Positions 78 to 14,225 of a DNA stretch of 14,225 nucleotides are shown here, piece by piece. Under the pieces are notes generated by a model, which did no database searches, was not told the DNA's origin, and was given only the letters and a program-made list of their open reading frames with translations. The stretch is from a virus (Duplodnaviria; Heunggongvirae; Uroviricota; Caudoviricetes): IMG/VR virus record IMGVR_UViG_2778261499_000007, one strand, 5' to 3'. Every line of letters begins with the position of its first letter. The first letter of the stretch is position 1. The translations under genes and the position numbers were made by a program.

Positions 78-156
78 CACCTTCCATCTGTGAGAGCTCT
101 TTGTGCAGCTTATCCATCATGCGCTTGTCTATGGTGCAATGGACTTTCGGACTCAT
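1..156 (-). CDS. 5' part (codons 1-52) of a wrap-around 152-aa CDS; putative tail-completion / virion-morphogenesis protein (HK97 gp10-like)
   Basis: ATG at 156-154 is preceded by GGAG with an 8-nt spacer. This ATG overlaps the TGA (155-153) of the upstream gene as ATGA. The frame stays open through base 1 and continues at 14148. N-terminus: MSPKVHCTIDKRMMDKLHKELSQMEGVAVGWDDGKHYSGLNYATLAAIHSEG. The stretch ATLAAIHSEGWGDLPKRSFMESA resembles the yA..vEfG....P.rpF motif of HK97 gp10-type tail components (from memory). Confidence 0.6.
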   Translation of the reverse strand, partial: MSPKVHCTIDKRMMDKLHKELSQMEGVAVGWDDGKHYSGLNYATLAAIHSEG

Positions 157-956
157 TTGTTGATCTCCGTGATGTCATCGAGCAACATGTTGGCCTTATC
201 GATCATCGTTTCGTGGAACTCATTCGACACAACAGACTTATCACCTGCGGCAATCTTTCCAGCAGCCTCTCCCTGTGCATATTCCCCGCGATGCTTAGCC
301 CTGGTGGATTTCGTAGCAGCGTTGCCAGCGTTGCTACCCTCTTTAGCACTGTTAACAGCACCCTTTTGCTGTGTTTTGTTCACCTTCTTACTGTTAGTGA
401 AAACTCCGGCATTTTCGACCATCTTCACCTTGAAGGTGCGGAATTCTTCAAAAGTGCAATCAATAGTGATGCAGTCGCCAGAGGAAGAGCTACGCTTAAC
501 TTCACATTTCGTCATGATGAAGTTCTCAAGAAGTCCGGCATCTTCACTAACCAGGCTAACCAGCTGGCGCTTGTCTCTCATTTCCATAAGTGCCTGAACA
601 GCGGCAGCAGGGCGCATAGATTCACGGGGATTATCTGGATCAGTGTTCCGGTCGATGTAGTTCTCTTTCCGGATGATATGAGGGGAAGAGGTGATAATAC
701 CCGTAAAGCTGACAGATTTATCTTTAATGACGGCATGGTCTGACATGGTGGTGCCATCCTCGACCGCATAGCTCGATTTCTCGACAGGGAACGAATAGCT
801 GACATCAGAGATTGAGTCAAAGAAGATAGCCACGTTATCGGTATAGTTGAAGCCATCCATTATATTTTTGTTTTGTGAATATCCCCCACACATAACAGTG
901 AATGCAGGAGATCTCGACTCAGCTTGTTTTGCAGCTGTCAGAGCATCACTAGCCAT
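153..956 (-). CDS. Putative Dit-like / baseplate-type tail protein (267 aa from Met19 of the track ORF)
   Basis: GGAGG lies 10 nt upstream of the ATG at 956. The track start at 1010 is a TTG with no SD. SFPVEKSSYAVEDGTTMSDHAVIKDKSVSFTGIITS, followed by AAVQALMEMRDKRQLVSLVSEDAGLLENFIMTKCEVKR, matches the PvEdG..isDh...P..l...G pattern plus the later L..l....lv.lvt....y.nm.i....v.r pattern of Dit-like N-terminal domains (from memory). The C-terminal third is low complexity. Confidence 0.45.
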   Translation of the reverse strand: MASDALTAAKQAESRSPAFTVMCGGYSQNKNIMDGFNYTDNVAIFFDSISDVSYSFPVEKSSYAVEDGTTMSDHAVIKDKSVSFTGIITSSPHIIRKENYIDRNTDPDNPRESMRPAAAVQALMEMRDKRQLVSLVSEDAGLLENFIMTKCEVKRSSSSGDCITIDCTFEEFRTFKVKMVENAGVFTNSKKVNKTQQKGAVNSAKEGSNAGNAATKSTRAKHRGEYAQGEAAGKIAAGDKSVVSNEFHETMIDKANMLLDDITEINK

Positions 957-1150
957 ATTAAACATGCCTCCAAATTGGTCCACTTCATGGATTTGGCTAA
1001 ACTCGTGCAAGTAGCACTCATCCCGAGGGTGTTAAAGCCAAACCTGCAAAAGATGCAGGCAAAATAGAACTTATCGTTGCCCTGCTTAAAATCTGCAGAA
1101 AATACAGGGCAGTTATTCGTTAGAATCGCTTATAGCTCTTCCCGAGAGCG

Positions 1151-1436: not shown

Positions 1437-1480
1437 GAGTCCTTCCAGGACCTTAGCTAAAGCTAAGCCCTTTGGGTCTG
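1437..1480 (-). repeat. Inverted repeat IR-L (44 nt, reverse complement of 4293-4336 with 5 mismatches)
   Basis: The minus strand reads cagacccaaagggcttagctttagctaaggtcctggaaggactc. It contains the palindrome CTTAGCT-TT-AGCTAAG and the hairpin GTCCT-GGA-AGGAC. Confidence 0.9.
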
Positions 1481-1487
1481 TGGATAA
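1479..1487 (-). promoter_or_regulatory. Perfect DnaA box (TTATCCACA on the minus strand)
   Basis: The plus strand reads tgtggataa, a 9/9 match to the E. coli consensus. It abuts IR-L. Confidence 0.4.
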
Positions 1488-1543: not shown

Positions 1544-2578
1544 TTATTTAGCCTTGGCAGCGGCGGCGGTGTTTTTAACACTCACTTTAACCACAACTTC
1601 AGGCATCATGTTCATGAAAGCATAAGAGGATTCAACGAAGATTTCGCGTTTGCCTCTGGACTCTTCCATATACATGAAAGCTTCACGTGCAGCGCCGTTT
1701 GCCAGCTTCAGGTTGCGAGCGCAAGGGCCGAAAAATTGAGTATAAACGCCCACCATATCGCCTAACGCATGCGGCTGGAACTGTGGGACTAGATAAGCAG
1801 TATTCTCTGGCAGACTATCCATTTGCACCACACGCAGGGCTAAGCCCGGAATGCGGAAGGTCGGGAAGCCCGGCAGAATATCCTCAGGGAACATCAGACC
1901 TTTATCGGTAATATTCTGATTGCCGAACAACAGCACTTTACGGAGCAGTTCATCAGTCTGAATTGCAGCAAAGAGCTCAGCACGGCAGAACAGGGTGAAA
2001 CCACGCAGAGCGCGAACGACACCACGCTGTTTAACCTTGCTCAGTGCAACCAGGTCCTGCAGCTGTTTAAGGATATCTTGAGCTAGATCCACTTCTGAAG
2101 TGGTTTGCTGTGCGCCCAGCAGTTCGCACACATTCAGTTCTTTACCCTTGGTGAGGATAATTTTGTTCTCAAAGAGAGCAAGCTGGCGTGCTTCTTCATG
2201 GGTCTGGCGTAAGCCTTCGCCCAGTTGAATAACACGACGAGCGGTTACAGACTCTAAATTCTCTTCGGAATCTTTGCCAGGAACGCGGATACCCTGCCAG
2301 TCAGAAGGATAAATAGCACTTGATGCGGCAGTGAACGCCATATCACCCGTGCCCGTTTCACGCTCATCTGCGGTAATGGTCGCCATCTGTTCACCGTAGC
2401 GCGGATACTGACCGAAAGCGGTTTGTTTCACCTGCCGAACTTTGTCATATTCAAATTTGAAGGTATTGCACAGAGCAGTAGTGTTGAAGATATCCATTGC
2501 TGAAATAATCTGATTATCCAGCGGGATGTCTTTAATCAGACCACACAGATCGCGAACTTCGAATTCTTTCTTAGCCAT
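1544..2578 (-). CDS. Major capsid protein, lambda gpE-like (344 aa)
   Basis: AGGAGG lies 6 nt upstream of the ATG at 2578. The track start at 2584 is a TTG. Size, position directly after a gpD-like gene, and overall sequence character fit the phage major capsid protein E family. It is followed by a strong terminator. Confidence 0.7.
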   Translation of the reverse strand: MAKKEFEVRDLCGLIKDIPLDNQIISAMDIFNTTALCNTFKFEYDKVRQVKQTAFGQYPRYGEQMATITADERETGTGDMAFTAASSAIYPSDWQGIRVPGKDSEENLESVTARRVIQLGEGLRQTHEEARQLALFENKIILTKGKELNVCELLGAQQTTSEVDLAQDILKQLQDLVALSKVKQRGVVRALRGFTLFCRAELFAAIQTDELLRKVLLFGNQNITDKGLMFPEDILPGFPTFRIPGLALRVVQMDSLPENTAYLVPQFQPHALGDMVGVYTQFFGPCARNLKLANGAAREAFMYMEESRGKREIFVESSYAFMNMMPEVVVKVSVKNTAAAAKAK

Positions 2579-2589
2579 TTCCAACCTCC

Positions 2590-3445: not shown

Positions 3446-3775
3446 CACCTTGATTATATAAATTCTAATAATTAGCGTAGTAACGGTATTTTCAGACCTC
3501 TATCAATCCCATCAATACGTCACCCCCACCCTTTAGATGCATACATCCGACCTACTTTGTAGGCTTGGCGTACTGCCAAGGTCGCAGCTATGCGACTCCT
3601 ATCTATCACCACTTTATAAAGCTTGATAGATATCTTTTGATCAATATCAATGTTTTCCGGGTATTTACCCGGCTATAGTTCGAATCAAGGAAGGGGAGCA
3701 TTGATAGAGACACCCAAAGGGGTGACTGAAAGTCACCTGGCATAGCCAGTGAAAGCACCCAACCGAACAAACAAA

Positions 3776-3790
3776 TCAACTTCTCGCAAA
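3776..3790 (+). promoter_or_regulatory. Conserved leader motif copy 1 (TCAACTTCTCGCAAA), 26 nt before an ATG
   Basis: Identical 15-mer to 4367-4381, at the same distance from the start codon. Confidence 0.6.
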
Positions 3791-3801
3791 AGGTGATAGT
3801 T

Positions 3802-3924
3802 ATGGGTATCAAGAACAGTGCCAGCGCATGGCAAAAGGCCAGGTTTCATCACCCACACATTGTTAAGGCAATTGAGGTGGTTGGAGTTTTAGCCCTGATG
3901 TTAGCTCTGTGTGTGGAGGTGTGA
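3802..3924 (+). CDS. Small protein, 40 aa, with a hydrophobic C-terminal segment
   Basis: AGGTGA SD upstream. Translation: MGIKNSASAWQKARFHHPHIVKAIEVVGVLALMLALCVEV. It is below the ORF-track size cut-off and was translated by hand. Confidence 0.4.
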   Translation: MGIKNSASAWQKARFHHPHIVKAIEVVGVLALMLALCVEV

Positions 3925-3925
3925 G

Positions 3926-4006
3926 ATGGGCAAAGGAGGCAAAGCATTTTTAATAGGTCTGGCTATCCTGGATGTTCTACTAATCATGATTAAGCGGAGT
4001 TTATGA
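3926..4006 (+). CDS. Small membrane peptide, 26 aa
   Basis: GGAGG lies 6 nt upstream. The start is 1 nt after the previous stop. Translation: MGKGGKAFLIGLAILDVLLIMIKRSL. Confidence 0.4.
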   Translation: MGKGGKAFLIGLAILDVLLIMIKRSL

Positions 4007-4025
4007 ACAGCATTGAGAGGAGTTT

Positions 4026-4286
4026 ATGACGGGGGCTAAAGATATCAGGAGACTGAGGGAAGAGCTGATAGCTGAAATTAAAGCTAAGGCAAAGCAAATG
4101 GAGATAGCCGCACAAATGGATGTAGCGGAACAGATGTACAAGATGGTTGAGGAGGGAACGCCACGACAGGTTATCGCTAAAACCTTCGGTGTGGGGATCG
4201 CCACCGTGCACAGAAGGCTGAAAGCCTATGCCGACTACCACAATATCGAGAGAAAGGAGGATGGGAGATTTAAGAAGAATAAATAG
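4026..4286 (+). CDS. Stand-alone recombinase-type HTH protein (86 aa; coiled helix plus a Hin/resolvase-like HTH, no catalytic domain)
   Basis: GTPRQVIAKTFGVGIATVHRRL aligns with Hin GHPRQQLAIIFGIGVSTLYRYF (10/22 identical, from memory). The N-terminal 40 aa is a charged helix. No serine-recombinase catalytic domain is present anywhere in the element. Confidence 0.55.
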   Translation: MTGAKDIRRLREELIAEIKAKAKQMEIAAQMDVAEQMYKMVEEGTPRQVIAKTFGVGIATVHRRLKAYADYHNIERKEDGRFKKNK

Positions 4287-4292
4287 TAGGAA

Positions 4293-4336
4293 CAGGCCCG
4301 AAGGGCTTAGCTTTAGCTAAGGTCCTATCAGGACTC
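4293..4336 (+). repeat. Inverted repeat IR-R (44 nt, partner of 1437-1480)
   Basis: Sequence: caggcccgaagggcttagctttagctaaggtcctatcaggactc. It starts 7 nt after the HTH gene stop. Confidence 0.9.
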
Positions 4337-4366
4337 CCACACAGTCCAACAGGTTATTAACTAAAT

Positions 4367-4381
4367 TCAACTTCTCGCAAA
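4367..4381 (+). promoter_or_regulatory. Conserved leader motif copy 2 (TCAACTTCTCGCAAA), 26 nt before an ATG
   Basis: See 3776-3790. Confidence 0.6.
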
Positions 4382-4392
4382 GGGGTACCACT

Positions 4393-5103
4393 ATGTTTAA
4401 AGGTCTTGTTGTTACGCTATTGGCTTGCATTGTATTTGGTCCATGGGTGTTAGTAATTGCTTTACCTATATTGCTGATCATGAGCTTAGGGAATGATATT
4501 AAAAAGCTGCATGCACAATATAAGGAGCATCCTGGAGCAGTCATAACAAGTCTGGTTATAGTCGCGGGGCTTATTGGCTGGGTCTACTTCTCTCTTCCCA
4601 CAGGAAATACAACTGCAAATGTAGAAGAGGCGAACGCACAGCATGAAGAAGTGGTTAACGTCGCCGACCTTACATGGGAGGACAGGGTAAAAGCATATAA
4701 ATATATTTATGGTGTGCTAGATTGCGATCTCTCTAAAGATATAGGATGCACAGATAAATACCAGATTCACGCCTGGCTGTGGAATCATGCAGAAAAAGGT
4801 GCTTGCAACCAGATTAAAGTGGCGGTTAACAGTGGGGCACCTACTGGGAAAAATAAAGATGTTCTGACGGTATGGTGCAAGGATGTAAAAGGCAATGATC
4901 GTTGGCTACAGATGCGCCACATGGACGGTGTAAGCATAGAAACTACACGAACGGCTCGATGGTATAACGGTGAACTCGTTCACGAAGCATGGCAGAATAA
5001 CGCCTGGATCACTGAGGGAACACTCCTGAATGTTGATATGGAAGCATTGAAGATGCTTAATGAGATGTACGGTGAAGCCGTAGAAACCTCTCCGATGAAA
5101 TAA
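4393..5103 (+). CDS. Membrane protein (236 aa) with N-terminal TM helices and a Cys/Trp-rich extracytoplasmic domain; function unknown
   Basis: Hydrophobic stretches: LVVTLLACIVFGPWVLVIALPILLIM and VITSLVIVAGLIGWVYF. Soluble C-terminal domain. Followed by a strong terminator. Confidence 0.6.
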   Translation: MFKGLVVTLLACIVFGPWVLVIALPILLIMSLGNDIKKLHAQYKEHPGAVITSLVIVAGLIGWVYFSLPTGNTTANVEEANAQHEEVVNVADLTWEDRVKAYKYIYGVLDCDLSKDIGCTDKYQIHAWLWNHAEKGACNQIKVAVNSGAPTGKNKDVLTVWCKDVKGNDRWLQMRHMDGVSIETTRTARWYNGELVHEAWQNNAWITEGTLLNVDMEALKMLNEMYGEAVETSPMK

Positions 5104-5113
5104 CCACACCTAC

Positions 5114-5140
5114 CAGGGGCCATCACGGCCCCTTTTTATT
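5114..5140 (+). terminator. Rho-independent terminator
   Basis: AGGGGCC-atcac-GGCCCCT followed by TTTTTATTT. Confidence 0.8.
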
Positions 5141-5200
5141 TATCCCCTATTTACACTCCTTTCAGTCCTGATCATCACTCCCTACCCCCTGATCAATTAA

Positions 5201-5251
5201 CCCCTATTTAAGGGGTATTTAATGGGTATTTAATGCCTATTTATTGATTTA
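5201..5251. repeat. Phased 11-bp repeats (SSSTATTTAWK, 4-5 copies)
   Basis: TATTTA starts at 5205, 5216, 5227 and 5238, an exact 11-bp period. There is a degenerate copy at about 5247 and an isolated copy at 5148. Confidence 0.7.
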
Positions 5252-6486
5252 ATCCGTTTTATGCCACAACCGCCCGGTTGACAGAGTAAGAGAGAGGGTG
5301 TAACCCTTTTTCGTAATACTAATAAAATCAATAGCTTAGCTCAATTGGCCTTTTCTCTGTTTTTGTCAAATTTAACATACCCTAAAAAACTGCAAAATCT
5401 GGCTGCAAGATTATCTGCAGCTGGATTTCTTACACCTCAATTTGTGGTATCACCCTGACTAGTTTGTGCATAAAATGAACAGTTTTTAACATTTCCTCTT
5501 CACCTGGTAACCACACAAAAAGCTAAAAACGAGGCACAGATAATCTTAGAGGCCTGTTTTCTTGTTATCACTCTGGAAACGTCGTAGAAGTGATTTTGAT
5601 GAAAGATGACCTACCCTATTACACCCCCATTTTTTGTTATCACAATTGCATCCTGTGCGGTGTATGGCTGTGTGCTGAAAGCGGTCTTGGGTGTGGGTGT
5701 CAGAAATATCCATTAGCGGTATTAATACCCGTCAGATGTTCGTCTGAGGTGCCAGGCAGGCGCTCCCCCACCTCCCTTTTTTCTTCTAACAATTCTCAAA
5801 TATCACACCACTGCCGACCACGTTACTACTCTGTTAATTCTTAAGCTTTGCTGTATGTTGTGCACATTATTTATTCAGGTGCGTGTACGTAAATTCTGGG
5901 CCTCCTTATCATGATTTTTAAATCAGATTTTGTAGTTCGGTTTCTTAGTGTAGATAAGATCTATTATGTTAAATGCAATTTTCCCAACCCTTCAAATCAA
6001 TGACTTACATGTAAGCATGCACTAACACCCCACACAGCACATTAGACGTATAGATGGCTATATCCCACATTTTTGATTGTTTTGTAGTCATTCCCCTGAT
6101 CATTTAACCAGTATAGTTTGTTCTTTGCAGACCACAAAATCGGAATTTACATCTGATTAACATAATCTGTTAGCATGATCACTATTACCCACACAACAAT
6201 AACCCCATGCAAGACTCTTCAGGCAATTTATCGGCGTGTTGGTGTGAACAGTCTTTCATGTTCTTTATGTTTTCATTGTCCTGTGTGAGGGAAGGATGGA
6301 CTGCCCCAGGGGCCACACTTATGATGCCCGGTCAACATAGCTATTGATAAAATCAACGGGTGTTGATCTGCATATTTCCCACACATGAGAGGAAATCAGA
6401 GCAAAGAGAGAGGAGAGAGGTTTGCTAGTCAAAATAGGTCAATTGACGGCTAATACAGAGTAAAAAATCAGATGCAATCACTCCCC

Positions 6487-6673
6487 ACCTGTTGGGATTT
6501 CCCGCACCTGTATAAGAATACAGTCATACTTTCCCGTTATACGGTCATACACATGATGGAATAACCTGTTGGAATTTCCTACAGGTTTAACCATACACAG
6601 GAGCTAACCTGTTGGAATTTCCTACTACTACCTGTCGGTATTTCCCACAGGTACCTGTTGGAATTTCCCACAC
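6487..6673 (+). repeat. Iteron array (5 x 21 bp, ACCTGTTGGAATTTCCCACAS); candidate replication origin
   Basis: Copies start at 6487, 6564, 6607, 6630 and 6653. The last three have a 23-bp period. Each contains an internal ACCTGT...ACAGGT dyad. An AT-rich flank (6674-6708) contains GATCTATTCTCTT on the minus strand (6683-6695), 1 mismatch from the oriC 13-mer GATCTnTTnTTTT. Confidence 0.75.
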
Positions 6674-6797
6674 TAATAGATAAAGAGAATAGATCAATAA
6701 AAAGAACTCCCCCTATAATCCCCCAACAAGGGGGGATGGGGAGGGATCAGAGAGTGGGGAAGGTTTTCTAAGGGAAAAGCTTAACCCACAAATGAAA

Positions 6798-7086
6798 GCC
6801 TAAAGAGCATTAGCGACTCTTTAGGCAATCTGTGTGTGGGGTGACAATGTATTCCATACATGACACGTCACCCAATTGTGTGTGGGGTGCTTACAGCACT
6901 TAAGCCTCTGGCTTAACCCTTCGGGCCTCTGTGTGGGAAGCGTAGTGCGATAGCACGTAGCTTTATAATGTGGAGTCCGGATAAGAGACTTCTGTTTCCA
7001 ATCCGGACCGTTTAAGCGAGGGATTCCGCTCGCCCGTGTATGCACACACGTAATAGGACGCTCAGAAATCGATTTTAAGGCCCAAA
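6798..7086 (+). other. Cluster of GC-rich hairpins (candidate structured ncRNA or single-strand initiation signal)
   Basis: GCCTAAAGAG/CTCTTTAGGC (6798-6826); GGGTGAC..GTCACCC with nested ATGTAT/ATACAT (6839-6873); CCC-TTCG-GGG context (6917-6925); GTCCGGAT/ATCCGGAC (6975-7008); GCGAG/CTCGC (7016-7033); AGGCCC/GGGCCT (7069-7086). TGTGTGTGGGGTG occurs twice (6831, 6877). Confidence 0.35.
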
Positions 7087-7231
7087 ACGGGGCCTACAGC
7101 AACCTAAACCATACTCCATAGTGCAATTGCATTGCCTGATGCTTAAATCGCGTTGTAGGGCATCTCATGAGGTTTGAGTTTAACACCCTCCAAAGTTTTA
7201 ACAAAAAGTGCTCTCCCTCCATTGTGGGCCA

Positions 7232-7261
7232 TTGACAATCTTATTGCATAAATGCTATAAG
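7232..7261 (+). promoter_or_regulatory. Promoter P1 (TTGACA-18-TATAAG)
   Basis: Read directly. Shares the ATTGACAAT motif with P2 and P3. Confidence 0.5.
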
Positions 7262-7360
7262 TGATTCTGGTTTTGACACGGTAGGGGCCATTAATAATGT
7301 TTACCCCTTTGCTGTGGACTTGCTTGCACCTATAGCACACCTAAATGATAATAATTCTCA

Positions 7361-7389
7361 TTGACAATTGGTTGACAATATGATAAGAT
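7361..7389 (+). promoter_or_regulatory. Promoter P2 (TTGACA-17-TAAGAT)
   Basis: Read directly. A second TTGACAAT lies 11 bp downstream, at 7372. Confidence 0.5.
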
Positions 7390-7424
7390 TATAAATAGGG
7401 GGAGAAACAGATCCGGAGGTCAAT

Positions 7425-7574
7425 GTGGAAATTACTGATGCAATAGCGATCATCAACCTGGCTGTACTGTGGTGCGGTGTTGCCTACATAGCCGGAGTAA
7501 CTGCAATCGACAATCTCGAAGAAAAAATGATAGATAAATACAAAAAGATTGTTGACAATTTGACGAATGTCTGA
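7425..7574 (+). CDS. Small single-TM peptide (49 aa, GTG start)
   Basis: GGAGG lies 5 nt upstream of the GTG. Translation: VEITDAIAIINLAVLWCGVAYIAGVTAIDNLEEKMIDKYKKIVDNLTNV. Not in the ORF track; translated by hand. Confidence 0.4.
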   Translation: MEITDAIAIINLAVLWCGVAYIAGVTAIDNLEEKMIDKYKKIVDNLTNV

Positions 7575-7580
7575 TAAAAT
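7552..7580 (+). promoter_or_regulatory. Promoter P3 (TTGACA-17-TAAAAT)
   Basis: Read directly. It lies inside the 3' end of the 49-aa ORF. Confidence 0.55.
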
Positions 7581-9275: not shown

Positions 9276-9289
9276 TTTTTTTTTTTTTT
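9276..9289 (+). repeat. T14 homopolymer tract
   Basis: Counted directly. It lies between the Rep-like stop and the RBS of the next small ORF. Confidence 0.9.
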
Positions 9290-9306
9290 GTTTAAGGAAA
9301 TTTAAA

Positions 9307-9551: not shown

Positions 9552-10040
9552 ATGTTCAAATCTGATCTTTCTGATTCCCAATTTGAAAAACTGGTAGCAC
9601 TGCAGAAATATCTCCCCAGTGATGATCAACCAACACGACAGGCTAAACACTTATTAGTCGAGGGCTTTACCCCTGAATTCGTGGCGGAATATACAGGCGT
9701 TAAACTTGAGAAAGTCCAAAAACTATATAATGAGTCCTGGAATCCACGGTGTCGAGTTCCCCTCAGTGTCTACAACGAAATAGATAGAGATAGAAATGTC
9801 TTCGAAGATCGCCGCCGCAAATCTCTTTTAATGTGGAATTGTGGGATGAATATTGAAGAGATAGCAAAAGAATTAAAAGTAACCTGCTTTCATATCTGGG
9901 GCTTGTTGAGTGAAATCCTACCACGTAAGGAGCTTAATCAACGTTTGCCTAAGCCCGGTAGTCGTGCTTATCGCGAATTTATATTCATCTACCGCCGCCA
10001 TAGCAATAAAGTCCGGAAAGCAATGGCCCAGAAAGCCTAA
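9552..10040 (+). CDS. Protein with two HTH-like motifs (162 aa); function unknown
   Basis: GGAGA lies 7 nt upstream. HTH-like stretches: FTPEFVAEYTGVKLEKVQKLY and MNIEEIAKELKVTCFHIWGLL. Basic C-terminal tail. Confidence 0.6.
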   Translation: MFKSDLSDSQFEKLVALQKYLPSDDQPTRQAKHLLVEGFTPEFVAEYTGVKLEKVQKLYNESWNPRCRVPLSVYNEIDRDRNVFEDRRRKSLLMWNCGMNIEEIAKELKVTCFHIWGLLSEILPRKELNQRLPKPGSRAYREFIFIYRRHSNKVRKAMAQKA

Positions 10041-11190: not shown

Positions 11191-13293
11191 ATGGCAATGA
11201 AGGAAGTAGCCAAGCTAACAAACGTTATTTACTGGGATTCTGATAAATCCAGCTGGCGAAAAGAAGTTAAACGGCTTGAGGATTATAAAAAATCCTGGAA
11301 GAAAGCTACCGACGATATAGCTAAAGCGGATTTTAAATCTAATCAGGCTGTGCTCAGAACACAAAGAACACGCGCTAAGGTGGAAGAGCAGATCGCCAGA
11401 GCACAGAAGAAACAACGTGCTCAGGCTGTCAGCCGTCTGACCGGGGGCAATAATCCGGAGCTCTCCTCTATGCGCAAGTTCTATCAGCAGCAAGCCAGAG
11501 AGGCCGCCAGACAACAAAAACTGTTAGATCGTAGTGTTGGAGATGTTCAGCACAGAAAAGCACGTGTAGGGGCCAACAGTGCACGAATCAGCAGCATGTT
11601 TGATGGCTCCCTGGTTGCTCAGTTCCAATCCAGAATTCAGAGAGTTAATGCTGATTATGCTAAAGGGGCTATTAACCTGCAGACCTATAATCAGAAAATG
11701 GCCCGACTCAGATCTGAAATGAAGATGGCAACAGCAGAGGCCGGAAAATTTCAGAGCAGACTAGACAAAGCTGCGGTAGCAGGATCAAAGCTGCATGACA
11801 ACCTGGGCAAACTCAACTCCACACTAGGCAAGATAGCTATTGGCCTTACTGCCGCTGGCTGGGGTGTTCAGCGTGCTGTTAGTGGTGCTATGGGTAGCCT
11901 TGCAGATCGCAACAGTGCGTATTTCAGCTTAATGGCCCAGAACAAGGATGATAAAGAAAAAACTGATCAGCAGATGGCCTACGTCAAAAGAATCTCTTAT
12001 GACTACGGGATGGATCAGCGTGAGACTGAAGGCGGCTTTATGCGCTTTGCTGCAGCCACACCAAGCATAAAAGAGAAAGATAAGCAGGATCTCTTTGAGG
12101 CTATGGCGATTAAAGGCCGATCAGTGGGTGCTACCGCAGACCAACAGAACAGGGCTATCGTTGCACTAGGACAAATATATAGCAAGGGCGGTCGAGTGTA
12201 TGCGGAAGAGCTTAAGGGCCAACTTTCTGAAGCCCTGGCAGGTTCTCAGGTAGATTTCACTAAGGCCGCTATCGATGCCGGAGTCATCAAGAAAGAGGAA
12301 GAATTTAATAAAGCCCTTGAAGATGGCAAGATCACCATGGACAAGCTTCTTCCTTCTCTGGTGAAAATCTGGGGTGCTGCAAAAGAAACTAAAGCTTTTG
12401 CTGAATCCATGAAACAGCCAGAAGTAGCAATGCAGCGCATGAAAAACAGCTTTAACGAGCTGGCGATTCAGTTTATGGGTGTTGTGGATCCTGCAGATGG
12501 CGTTATTAGCTTATCTGAATCTCTAATCTCCATCTTCGAAGACCTCACCACTGATATGGACGGCAGCGGGAGCGCGGCAAAACAGTTCGGTGAGGCAGTC
12601 GGGGCTGCCATGCGGGAGATCATGTATTGGGTAGGCTTCGCTAAGGGATATATCGAGATTAAGGCTAAAGAGTTCGGCATGACCAGTGAGGAAGTCGGAG
12701 GATGGATCGGCAAGCTGGTTGTTGCAATCGCAGGTCTGAAGATCATCGGCACACTTCTTTCTCCGTTTACCGGACTGATTTCACTTGTCACACAGCTGAT
12801 AGCCTTGTTAGGTAAAATCCCTGGTATGAGCAAGCTTCTGGCTTCTGCCTCAGGTGGAACGGCAACAGGAGCAGCGGTCATCAGTGCAGGATCTAACGCT
12901 GAAAGAAGTTTCATTGATGGCAAGACGCAGGAAATGAGTAAGGAGAACTCAAAACAGGGTGCTTTGTTTGAGCTGGGAAGATTTGTTAGCAATGCTGGCG
13001 CACTATTCACACCTGGCGGTGATACTGGTCCTTTGTTCGATCAGGTCAGAGGCTGGTTTAATAAAGGGCCAACATTGACAGTAGACACTGGCATCAGACC
13101 AACACCAACGGGTGGCATAGCTATCCAGAATGGTGGATATCAACCAGTCCAAGTAAATGTAGCCCCACAAGGTGAGATTTCCGGCAAATGGGAGATAACC
13201 ATCGATGAGGGGGGAATTGCCAGGGTAATTCAGAAGGAAGTCAGCGATCAGTTGGATTGGAAAGCCACGCAGGAATCTAACCAGCTTTTCTAA
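11191..13293 (+). CDS. Tail tape measure protein (700 aa)
   Basis: GAGG lies 6 nt upstream. Long coiled-coil N-terminus. Conserved tape-measure core: ADQQNRAIVALGQIYSKGGRVYAEELKGQLSEALAGSQVDFTKAAIDAGV. Gly/Ala-rich hydrophobic segments: GKLVVAIAGLKIIGTLLSPFTGLISLVTQLIALLG. Confidence 0.85.
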   Translation: MAMKEVAKLTNVIYWDSDKSSWRKEVKRLEDYKKSWKKATDDIAKADFKSNQAVLRTQRTRAKVEEQIARAQKKQRAQAVSRLTGGNNPELSSMRKFYQQQAREAARQQKLLDRSVGDVQHRKARVGANSARISSMFDGSLVAQFQSRIQRVNADYAKGAINLQTYNQKMARLRSEMKMATAEAGKFQSRLDKAAVAGSKLHDNLGKLNSTLGKIAIGLTAAGWGVQRAVSGAMGSLADRNSAYFSLMAQNKDDKEKTDQQMAYVKRISYDYGMDQRETEGGFMRFAAATPSIKEKDKQDLFEAMAIKGRSVGATADQQNRAIVALGQIYSKGGRVYAEELKGQLSEALAGSQVDFTKAAIDAGVIKKEEEFNKALEDGKITMDKLLPSLVKIWGAAKETKAFAESMKQPEVAMQRMKNSFNELAIQFMGVVDPADGVISLSESLISIFEDLTTDMDGSGSAAKQFGEAVGAAMREIMYWVGFAKGYIEIKAKEFGMTSEEVGGWIGKLVVAIAGLKIIGTLLSPFTGLISLVTQLIALLGKIPGMSKLLASASGGTATGAAVISAGSNAERSFIDGKTQEMSKENSKQGALFELGRFVSNAGALFTPGGDTGPLFDQVRGWFNKGPTLTVDTGIRPTPTGGIAIQNGGYQPVQVNVAPQGEISGKWEITIDEGGIARVIQKEVSDQLDWKATQESNQLF

Positions 13294-13395: not shown

Positions 13396-13432
13396 AAAAA
13401 AGCCCCTAAGTGTTAACAAAGGGGCTCTTCTC
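13396..13432. terminator. Bidirectional terminator between the convergent operons (best on the minus strand)
   Basis: AGCCCCT (13401-13407) / AGGGGCT (13420-13426), preceded by A6, so the minus strand reads stem plus TTTTTT. On the plus strand it is followed by CTTCTCC. Confidence 0.65.
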
Positions 13433-13456
13433 CGGTATCCTTTTGATGCGGGGCAA

Positions 13457-13504
13457 AACCTGCTAACAAAAATCAACCTCTCGCGAGACTAATGTTAGCA
13501 GGTT
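13457..13504 (+). other. 12-bp perfect hairpin whose 24-nt loop carries leader-motif variant 3
   Basis: AACCTGCTAACA / TGTTAGCAGGTT. The loop aaaatcaacctctcgcgagactaa contains TCAACCTCTCGCGAG (13473-13487) and the palindrome TCTCGCGAGA. Confidence 0.6.
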
Positions 13505-13822
13505 GCCGGAAGGTAAGTCAACTCCGGTCTATAAACCTTAAAGCGACTATAAAATCGCCCCGCCAATTGTGATGATCCGACCTTTGAGGCGGGTCCGGTG
13601 CCCAGGGGGTGCAGTGATGCACAAACCAGGCAACGATAAACAGGCTAACAGTGATAGCGGCGCTCAATCAGCGCACTAAATCCTAACCAGTCCGGGAAAG
13701 AGGCTGGCTCTATCGACCGCTCATGCACGGGACAATGCATACCTGATAAAGGATTCTCACAAGGGACCAATCGCGAGAAAGAAGTGGAAAGGGGCTGATT
13801 TGTGGTGTATCACTACGGCCTC

Positions 13823-13846
13823 AAAAGACATCCTATTGTCTTTTTT
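13823..13846 (+). terminator. AT-rich hairpin plus T-run (weak plus-strand terminator abutting the stop of the wrap-around gene)
   Basis: AAAAGACA-tcctat-TGTCTTTT followed by TT. Confidence 0.35.
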
Positions 13847-14148
13847 CAGCCTCTACCTACATTTGACCAATACTTGATTGCACCGATCAAATCATCATAG
13901 TGGCGCATTGCATCATTGAAGCCTTTATAGCTTGCCCATTGTGGTGAAACCTTGTTATTGCTGAATTGCCCACTAATCAGGATAGTCTCCAAAATGTCGG
14001 CATATCGCTTACCAATACGCTTTCTGACGGCCTCAGAGCTCCCACCCTTTACGATTGCATTAATCAGGGCTTTTGTGTGTCTCAGGCTCTCATAGAGCAT
14101 TGCAGCGTGGGCAGATTCCATAAAGGAGCGCTTAGGCAGATCACCCCA
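13846..14148 (-). CDS. 3' part (codons 53-152 plus stop) of the wrap-around CDS
   Basis: The ORF track lists only 13846-14121, starting at an internal Met. Hand translation shows the frame is open upstream through 14225 (...AVGWDDGKHYSGLNYATLAAIHSEGWGDLPKRSF-MESAH...). Confidence 0.6.
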   Translation of the reverse strand, partial: WGDLPKRSFMESAHAAMLYESLRHTKALINAIVKGGSSEAVRKRIGKRYADILETILISGQFSNNKVSPQWASYKGFNDAMRHYDDLIGAIKYWSNVGRG

Positions 14149-14225
14149 CCCCTCAGAGTGGATAGCTGCCAGTGTGGCGTAATTCAGGCCGCTATAGTGC
14201 TTTCCGTCATCCCAGCCAACCGCTA
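14149..14225. repeat. Terminal overlap copy 2 (identical to 1-77)
   Basis: Same comparison as for copy 1. Confidence 0.9.

Follow-up and report, generated by a model that had tools for sequence, protein, structure and literature searches.

What is the role of a short sequence that stands just ahead of two genes of a small plasmid and recurs, slightly altered, in a noncoding region elsewhere on the same molecule? We addressed this question in the IMG/VR virus record IMGVR_UViG_2778261499_000007 (Caudoviricetes), whose whole stretch of 14,225 nucleotides (nt) is referred to here as the window. A first-pass annotation had noted two identical 15-mers, TCAACTTCTCGCAAA, at 3776-3790 and 4367-4381 on the plus strand (copies 1 and 2), each starting 26 nt before an ATG (3802 and 4393), and a variant, TCAACCTCTCGCGAG, at 13473-13487 (copy 3); the identity of the two 15-mers and their distances to the ATGs were confirmed exactly in the window. 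We propose that the three copies are parts of one circuit, in which a plasmid-encoded trans-acting small RNA (sRNA) would pair through its 5' seed beside the ribosome-binding sites of two cistrons. Judged from sequence comparison, we assign this proposal a probability of about one half.

Conservation of the motif in a plasmid family

The window is circular: its ends share 77 identical nt (bases 1-77 and 14149-14225), and the true plasmid size is therefore approximately 14,148 bp. It is a member of a tight family of 13.2-14.4 kb non-mobilisable plasmids of Escherichia coli and Shigella, of which no description was found in the literature searched. The relatives included in the comparison are loci L001-L005 and L115-L142. 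The 15-mer repeat alone is only marginally beyond chance, because 26 of 300 shuffled 14-kb sequences (9%) contain an exact direct repeat of this length somewhere. A search of related elements, as the first-pass annotation had suggested, revealed exactly three same-strand copies of a core, TCAACYTCTCGC, in every full-length member among the 34 family loci. Copy 1 is invariant in 35 of 35 family copies, including those of the L132 and L128 lineages. Copy 2 varies among relatives (ACAACCTCTCGC, ACAATCTCTCGC, or TCAACTTCTCGC followed by AGG), and copy 3, read on the plus strand, is TCAACCTCTCGC in 28 copies and TCAACTTCTCGC in three. These variants define the 12-mer TCAACYTCTCGC as the conserved unit. 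The core is kept in the L115/L132 lineage, in which the larger part of the plasmid cannot be aligned or shows 60-80% identity, and also in the L128, L129, and L141 versions despite the replacement of the entire surroundings of copy 3. It is the persistence of the core in lineages whose flanks are approximately 70% identical or unalignable that gives the motif weight: it is real and conserved, and it looks functional.

At copies 1 and 2, the constant feature is a Shine-Dalgarno sequence that begins 1-4 nt after the 12-nt core. The similarity between the two copies continues from the motif through the ATG, as had been reported, with a count of 22/29 in place of the 21/30 given earlier. A fixed spacing to the start codon, which had been taken to point to a translation-level or transcript-level signal, does not hold among the relatives: copy 1 begins 26 or 29 nt and copy 2 begins 25, 26, or 27 nt before the ATG, a variation of up to 4 nt (25-29 nt), and the adjacency to the Shine-Dalgarno sequence is conserved instead.

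The motif is carried by only two of the approximately 19 plasmid genes, and no inverted copy with three or fewer mismatches is present on either strand of the plasmid. In the phage rV5, no match with two or fewer mismatches was detected in the whole rV5_ev168 genome, which also contains no match to TCAAC.TCTCG, and k-mer enrichment upstream of 108 rV5 genes recovered only Shine-Dalgarno-type motifs. An exact scan of IMG/VR returned 106 matches, one per stretch, all in unrelated contexts; the sole look-alike with a Shine-Dalgarno sequence and an ATG that was examined (L064/L075) lies inside an open reading frame (ORF) of 423 amino acids. The IMG/VR matches are chance occurrences. The motif is thus private to the plasmid family, and its pairing partner should therefore be plasmid-borne.

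A predicted sRNA gene on the minus strand

Neither a Shine-Dalgarno sequence nor an ORF follows copy 3 in any of its three sequence versions, which sets it apart from copies 1 and 2 as a signal of a different kind. Its core (13473-13484), read on the minus strand, is GCGAGAGGTTGA; this sequence is the predicted 5' seed of the sRNA and is complementary to both of the other copies, with a single G-U pair. Upstream of it on this strand is a predicted sigma-70-type promoter (13492-13521), consisting of the -35 box TTGACT (13521-13516), an 18-nt spacer, and TGc followed by the -10 box TAACAT (13500-13492). In the promoter scan, the window and L132 promoters score 9/12 with an extended -10. The gap between the -10 box and the seed is 7 nt, and the predicted +1 near G13484 is exactly where the similarity of copy 3 to copies 1 and 2 ends. 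Minus-strand transcription would start at approximately 13484 and end at an intrinsic terminator near 13396. The predicted sRNA body of approximately 89 nt (13396-13484) has a hairpin, GCCCCT...AGGGGC (13425-13402), followed by U6 (13401-13396), with approximately 75 nt from the seed to this GC-rich terminator hairpin. Its predicted fold, in which the first 8 nt stay single-stranded, has a free energy of -31 kcal/mol (z = -3.0), and a longer form has z = -5.7. From these signals, we infer that the RNA is made and where its 5' end lies.

The third variant had also been described as sitting in the loop of a perfect 12-bp hairpin that sequesters an ATG. The inverted repeat is indeed present (13457-13468 and 13493-13504), the variant lies in its 24-nt loop, and the ATG at 13492 straddles loop and stem. 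This ATG has neither a Shine-Dalgarno sequence nor a conserved ORF, and its complement is part of the minus-strand -10 box TAACAT. One arm of the repeat lies in the predicted sRNA and the other over the -10 region, and in read-through transcripts the seed would be exposed in the 24-nt loop. It is absent from L128 and L141 and is therefore not essential to the conserved unit.

The diverged lineages retain the same arrangement in different sequence surroundings. Lineages with 60-80% identity elsewhere share 97-99% identity over the predicted sRNA segment. In L128, L129, and L141, the 13400-13800 module is swapped for unalignable sequence, and the minus strand contains GAGTTGACTT, a 29-nt gap, and GCGAGAAGTTGA, immediately followed by a terminator hairpin and its U-run. 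The window and the diverged L128 version have few blocks in common; GAGTTGACTT is among them, and its distance to the seed is 29 nt in L128 versus 31 nt in the window. GCGAGAAGTTGA, the seed of these versions, is fully Watson-Crick complementary to the targets. The L128/L141 12-mer is bounded by the predicted start and the terminator stem, which accounts for the conservation of exactly 12 nt. The sRNA would be approximately 45-60 nt long in the L141 and L128 versions, in which the seed is unpaired. On the minus strand, a hairpin and U4-6 follow the seed in all three versions (z = -3.0 to -5.7); read on the plus strand, the same hairpins lack a U-run. No Rfam family matched; C4 and IsrK in particular gave no match at the gathering threshold, at E ≤ 1 in the whole window, or at E ≤ 10 around copy 3, and the RefSeq records have no annotation at the copy 3 locus.

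The predicted gene lies within a longer noncoding module (13400-13850) between the tape measure and neck-like genes. This module is 97-99% identical between the window and the L132 lineage, plasmids that elsewhere are 60-80% identical or unalignable. Its portion beyond the predicted sRNA could be a packaging site.

Predicted pairing beside two ribosome-binding sites

Duplexes of the 14-nt seed at the predicted 5' end were scanned against both strands of the whole plasmid in three lineages. The sRNA's own locus gives the best duplex plasmid-wide, followed by copy 1 and then copy 2. These two are thus the top targets, with -21 to -22 kcal/mol versus -17.5 kcal/mol or weaker elsewhere, and cofolding yields gains of -17.5 and -12.9 kcal/mol. 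The pairing comprises 12 contiguous pairs and ends 1-4 nt from the Shine-Dalgarno sequence. All natural variants inside the core preserve pairing as G-U, G-C, or A-U. At position 6, U is opposite G in the window lineage, C is opposite G in L132 copy 2, and U is opposite A in L128; at position 5, C is changed to U in L133, giving a G-U pair.

In the proposed mechanism, the first 12 nt of the sRNA (GCGAGAGGUUGA) would pair with UCAACUUCUCGC, located 1-4 nt upstream of the Shine-Dalgarno sequences of two plus-strand cistrons. The first would be the operon for a 40-amino acid peptide, a 26-amino acid hydrophobic peptide, and an HTH_7 protein, and the second would be a swappable envelope-protein gene. 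Pairing near the ribosome-binding site would most likely block 30S binding and repress translation, and activation may occur instead; we infer the direction of regulation, as well as any Hfq dependence and the biological role. Among the candidates offered by the first-pass annotation (a site for a translational regulator or an sRNA, or an element-specific promoter), the sRNA fits best, and the third variant is more likely a seed gene on the opposite strand than a third site.

The core of copy 1, TCAACTTCTCGC (3776-3787), is the proposed sRNA target in the leader of the first operon (3790-4286, plus strand). This operon has the Shine-Dalgarno sequence AAGGTGA at 3790-3796 and three ORFs, which encode a 40-amino acid membrane peptide (ATG 3802-3924) with a hydrophobic C-terminus that is conserved in all lineages, a 26-amino acid hydrophobic peptide (3927-4007) that is also conserved, and an 86-amino acid protein (4026-4286) with a Pfam HTH_7 match (E = 3.4e-6). 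A conserved -10-like TATAGT/TAAAGT sequence approximately 100 nt upstream suggests that copy 1 lies inside a leader. The core of copy 2 (4367-4378), the proposed second target, lies in the short intercistronic gap before the cargo ORF (4393-5103, plus strand). The cargo protein has 236 amino acids and an N-terminal transmembrane segment; its Shine-Dalgarno sequence is GGGG at 4382-4385, and a terminator-like hairpin (5115-5133, plus strand) lies 3' of the ORF. In relatives, the cargo slot after copy 2 is occupied by genes for membrane or secreted proteins of at least three families (173/179, 186/225/236, and 195 amino acids), and these genes are exchanged precisely at the start codon. The proteins headed by the motif match no known toxin or defence family, and the cargo proteins have no match in Pfam or PADLOC. 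The region 3600-3801 also contains TGATAG repeats: GGTGATAGAT (complement of 3601-3610), CTTGATAGAT at 3622, ATTGATAGAG at 3700, and GGTGATAGTT at 3792, the last of which overlaps the Shine-Dalgarno/ATG region of the first gene. These repeats may be operators of the HTH_7 protein, distinct from the 12-nt core.

Several observations weigh against the sRNA. The minimum free energy fold of the 89-nt RNA partly pairs the seed, which is freed by a slightly longer 5' end. L128 and L141 keep the -35 box TTGACT but have a weak -10 (CACACT, 3/6), and a simple scan calls neither this promoter nor the proposed terminator in them. The complement of the motif contains TTGA, making a nearby -35-like box slightly less surprising, and hairpins beside copy 3 are expected anyway between convergent operons. 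On the target side, an A at position 1 of L132-lineage copy 2 leaves a mismatch at the end of the duplex. The covariation is thin, with two variable positions and few independent lineages, and all core changes are transitions, which a protein site would perhaps tolerate too.

Alternative explanations

A protein site in DNA is one such alternative: the 12-nt core may be an operator at which a plasmid DNA-binding protein, with the 86-amino acid HTH_7 protein as one candidate, represses its own operon, the cargo gene, and the copy 3 unit. Resolvase-type helix-turn-helix (HTH) domains can bind asymmetric sites of approximately 12 bp as monomers, and a non-palindromic 12-bp site after an A-rich tract resembles Hin-type half-sites. 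Several points are consistent with an operator: copies 1 and 2 flank the HTH_7 gene, the lineages conserve the recognition helix of its product, the motif is confined to this plasmid family, and copy 3 overlaps the predicted +1 of the minus-strand promoter, where an operator could plausibly lie. However, what the core accompanies at copies 1 and 2 is the Shine-Dalgarno sequence (at 1-4 nt, whatever the lineage or cargo gene) and not any recognisable promoter, and all copies have one orientation although copy 3 faces a minus-strand unit. An operator also leaves unexplained why the predicted +1 and, in L128, the terminator stem mark the exact limits of the similarity, and we consider it unlikely. 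Still smaller is the chance that the motif is a promoter specific to the element or to a helper phage, which would be used by an alternative sigma factor or an RNA polymerase modified by a phage and would produce very short leaders at the first two copies and a plus-strand noncoding RNA at copy 3. Such transcripts would start at or within the Shine-Dalgarno sequence, whereas the -10-like sequence approximately 100 nt upstream suggests a position of copy 1 inside a leader, and copy 2 lies in a short intercistronic gap in which most members have no terminator. The three same-strand copies do each stand at the start of a unit after an A/T-rich stretch, a simple scan finds no plus-strand sigma-70-type promoter directly upstream of copy 1, and the 400 nt after copy 3 are exceptionally conserved. 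The plasmid also encodes a 162-amino acid protein similar to sigma-70 region 4, but this match is below threshold. A helper-phage promoter finds no support either in rV5, which lacks the motif even in degenerate forms and has only Shine-Dalgarno-type k-mers enriched upstream of its genes, or in IMG/VR, where all 106 exact matches have unrelated contexts.

The motif might also act at the RNA level on a protein or the ribosome, as the site of a translational repressor, as an enhancer acting through S1 or 16S, or as a site of RNase processing, with copy 3 being unrelated or a decoy. In all lineages, copies 1 and 2 directly adjoin the Shine-Dalgarno sequence, and the pyrimidine-rich sequence of the motif loosely resembles the T7 gene 10 'epsilon' enhancer TTAACTTTA. 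However, enhancer or S1 sites do not need 12/12 conservation, only two of approximately 19 genes carry the motif, and no recognisable RNA-binding protein is encoded on the plasmid. The exact core of copy 3 in three unrelated ORF-less contexts would be left unexplained, and we regard this possibility as improbable.

Other candidates were tried and rejected. A translation-initiation signal tied to the start codon is not consistent with copy 3, which lacks a Shine-Dalgarno sequence and an ORF, or with the 25-29 nt spacing at copies 1 and 2. By eye, layouts of sigma-54, sigma-E/extracytoplasmic function, sigma-28, and T7-like promoters gave no consistent -35/-10 or -24/-12 spacing at the three copies. 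The CsrA consensus from systematic evolution of ligands by exponential enrichment is resembled by L128 copy 1 only and not by the other copies. A site-specific recombination site or cassette boundary was rejected because the cargo genes swap at the ATG and not at the motif. A conserved hairpin around the -35 box was dismissed since a convincing stem is present in the L128 version only.

Comparison with known systems

The predicted sRNA is most readily compared with the trans-encoded enterobacterial sRNAs that pair through a 5' seed, such as RybB and OmrA/B; the prophage-encoded DicF is similarly short. Like them, it is predicted to have its own promoter, a seed at the extreme 5' end, and a 3' hairpin with a U-tail, and it would form approximately 12-nt pairings beside the ribosome-binding sites of more than one target. 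Unlike them, the sRNA and both targets would be encoded on the same 14-kb plasmid, and it has no sequence or Rfam relationship to known families.

Short RNAs also control immunity in phage-linked elements. In the phage-plasmids P1 and P7, immunity involves the c4 RNA and the icd-ant leader. In satellite P4, immunity depends on the CI RNA with seqA and seqC (PMC10111431). In these elements, as proposed here, one short RNA with two repeated targets holds an early or regulatory operon in check on a phage-linked mobile element. By contrast, the P4 and P1 RNAs are processed from the transcript and strand of their targets, and that of P4 acts via transcription termination, whereas here complementarity to the targets, which directly adjoin Shine-Dalgarno sequences, is confined to the opposite strand at a distance of 4.5 kb. 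In the window, the Rfam models of P4/P1-type immunity RNAs (C4 and IsrK) are also without a match.

Type I toxin-antitoxin systems with a trans-acting antitoxin RNA (tisB/istR-1, shoB/ohsC, and zorO/orzO) would share two features with this locus: small hydrophobic peptides (40 and 26 amino acids here) encoded just 3' of the sRNA-complementary leader stretch, and a separate sRNA gene with only short complementarity to the target. Unlike in those systems, the peptides here match no known toxin family, and the same sRNA would also control a swappable envelope-protein gene and, by polarity, an HTH regulator. The predicted sRNA thus resembles the P4/P1 immunity RNAs and type I antitoxins in logic and is not a member of those RNA families. 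Most likely, the motif represents a known regulatory logic in a new set of sRNA and targets, and the plasmid family that carries it is more unusual.

The plasmid family and a possible role

The structural gene set of the plasmid family comprises capsid, decoration-like, Dit-like, neck-like, chaperone-like, and tape measure genes. In the window, the major capsid protein is encoded at 1544-2584 (minus strand) with an adjoining 111-amino acid protein, the Dit-like baseplate protein at 153-1010 (minus strand), and the tape measure protein at 11191-13293 (plus strand); a neck-like protein, two HTH_36/O-like replication proteins, and several small HTH proteins are also encoded. The structural genes relate to those of rV5-type (Vequintavirus) phages at different depths, with approximately 25% amino acid identity for the capsid and tape measure proteins and 63% nucleotide identity for the Dit-like gene. 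No terminase, portal, or integrase gene was found on the plasmid. Members of this family are candidate plasmid-borne phage satellites. Among its members are pE275a_13 (NZ_CP035869) and p7_14_47A-2 (NZ_CP074841), and one record of the family (NZ_CP043822) is a head-to-tail trimer of 39.6 kb. A profile search with the capsid protein found no relatives in GTDB contigs (one genome per species) or in IMG/VR, the tape measure protein alone led to 410 protein clusters, and a metagenome pattern search for relatives outside E. coli yielded three loci.

The sRNA could serve to silence toxic membrane peptides, as a means of plasmid addiction, or as an immunity-like switch of a phage-dependent element. 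A more elaborate scenario, which we put forward as speculative and rather doubtful, is that rV5-like (Vequintavirus) phages have in this plasmid a plasmid-borne satellite of a new kind, with the sRNA as its RNA-based immunity or addiction switch. During carriage, the sRNA would silence the membrane-peptide/HTH operon and the swappable envelope gene, which would function in exclusion or defence, and helper infection or plasmid loss would relieve this silencing. Such a switch would parallel P4 CI and P1 c4, having evolved independently and acting in trans from the opposite strand. If the proposed circuit is correct, an unannotated sRNA and two targets would be added to a widespread, uncharacterised plasmid family of E. 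coli and Shigella, which would provide a simple, testable handle on the control of the small membrane peptides, the regulator, and the exchangeable envelope gene by the element. Phage-dependent elements with RNA-based control, such as P4 and P1, would also gain a further independent example.

Other features of the plasmid

Small hairpins had been noted before copies 1 and 2. They are present in the window and belong to 47-49-nt elements of three adjacent hairpins each, which occur at 1437-1481 (minus strand), 3704-3755 (plus strand), and 4292-4336 (plus strand), with a partial element at 6911-6928. The elements are clean insertions that are present or absent among close relatives; those before the motif occur in few members and lie outside the conserved unit. 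Closely similar elements with compensatory stem changes are found in an ORF-free region of phage rV5 (approximately 103.4-105.7 kb), and they look like a tiny mobile or structured repeat common to plasmid and phage.

A region of approximately 2.3 kb without an ORF (5104-7424) is common to all family members and has no Rfam match. Within it, five 21-nt iteron-like repeats, TAACCTGTTGGAATTTCCTAC, at 6485-6671 with a spacing of mostly 23 nt are probably the replication origin. A paralogous pair of near-consensus sigma-70 promoters, TGTTGACAAT...TGnTATAAT/TAAAAT, is located at 3445-3417 (minus strand) and 7552-7580 (plus strand), and these promoters resemble the early-promoter consensus reported for Vequintavirinae phages (PMC7344957). 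Transcription of the capsid operon from the minus-strand promoter would produce an untranslated leader of approximately 490 nt (3410 to 2925).

The 162-amino acid protein (9552-10040) has two HTH-like segments with sub-threshold similarity to sigma-70 region 4, HTH_40, and KorA (E ~0.007-0.07), which is not enough to call it a sigma factor. Just upstream of a 48-amino acid ORF (ATG 9307), a run of 15 T (9277-9291) is possibly a slippage-prone tract or a promoter spacer.

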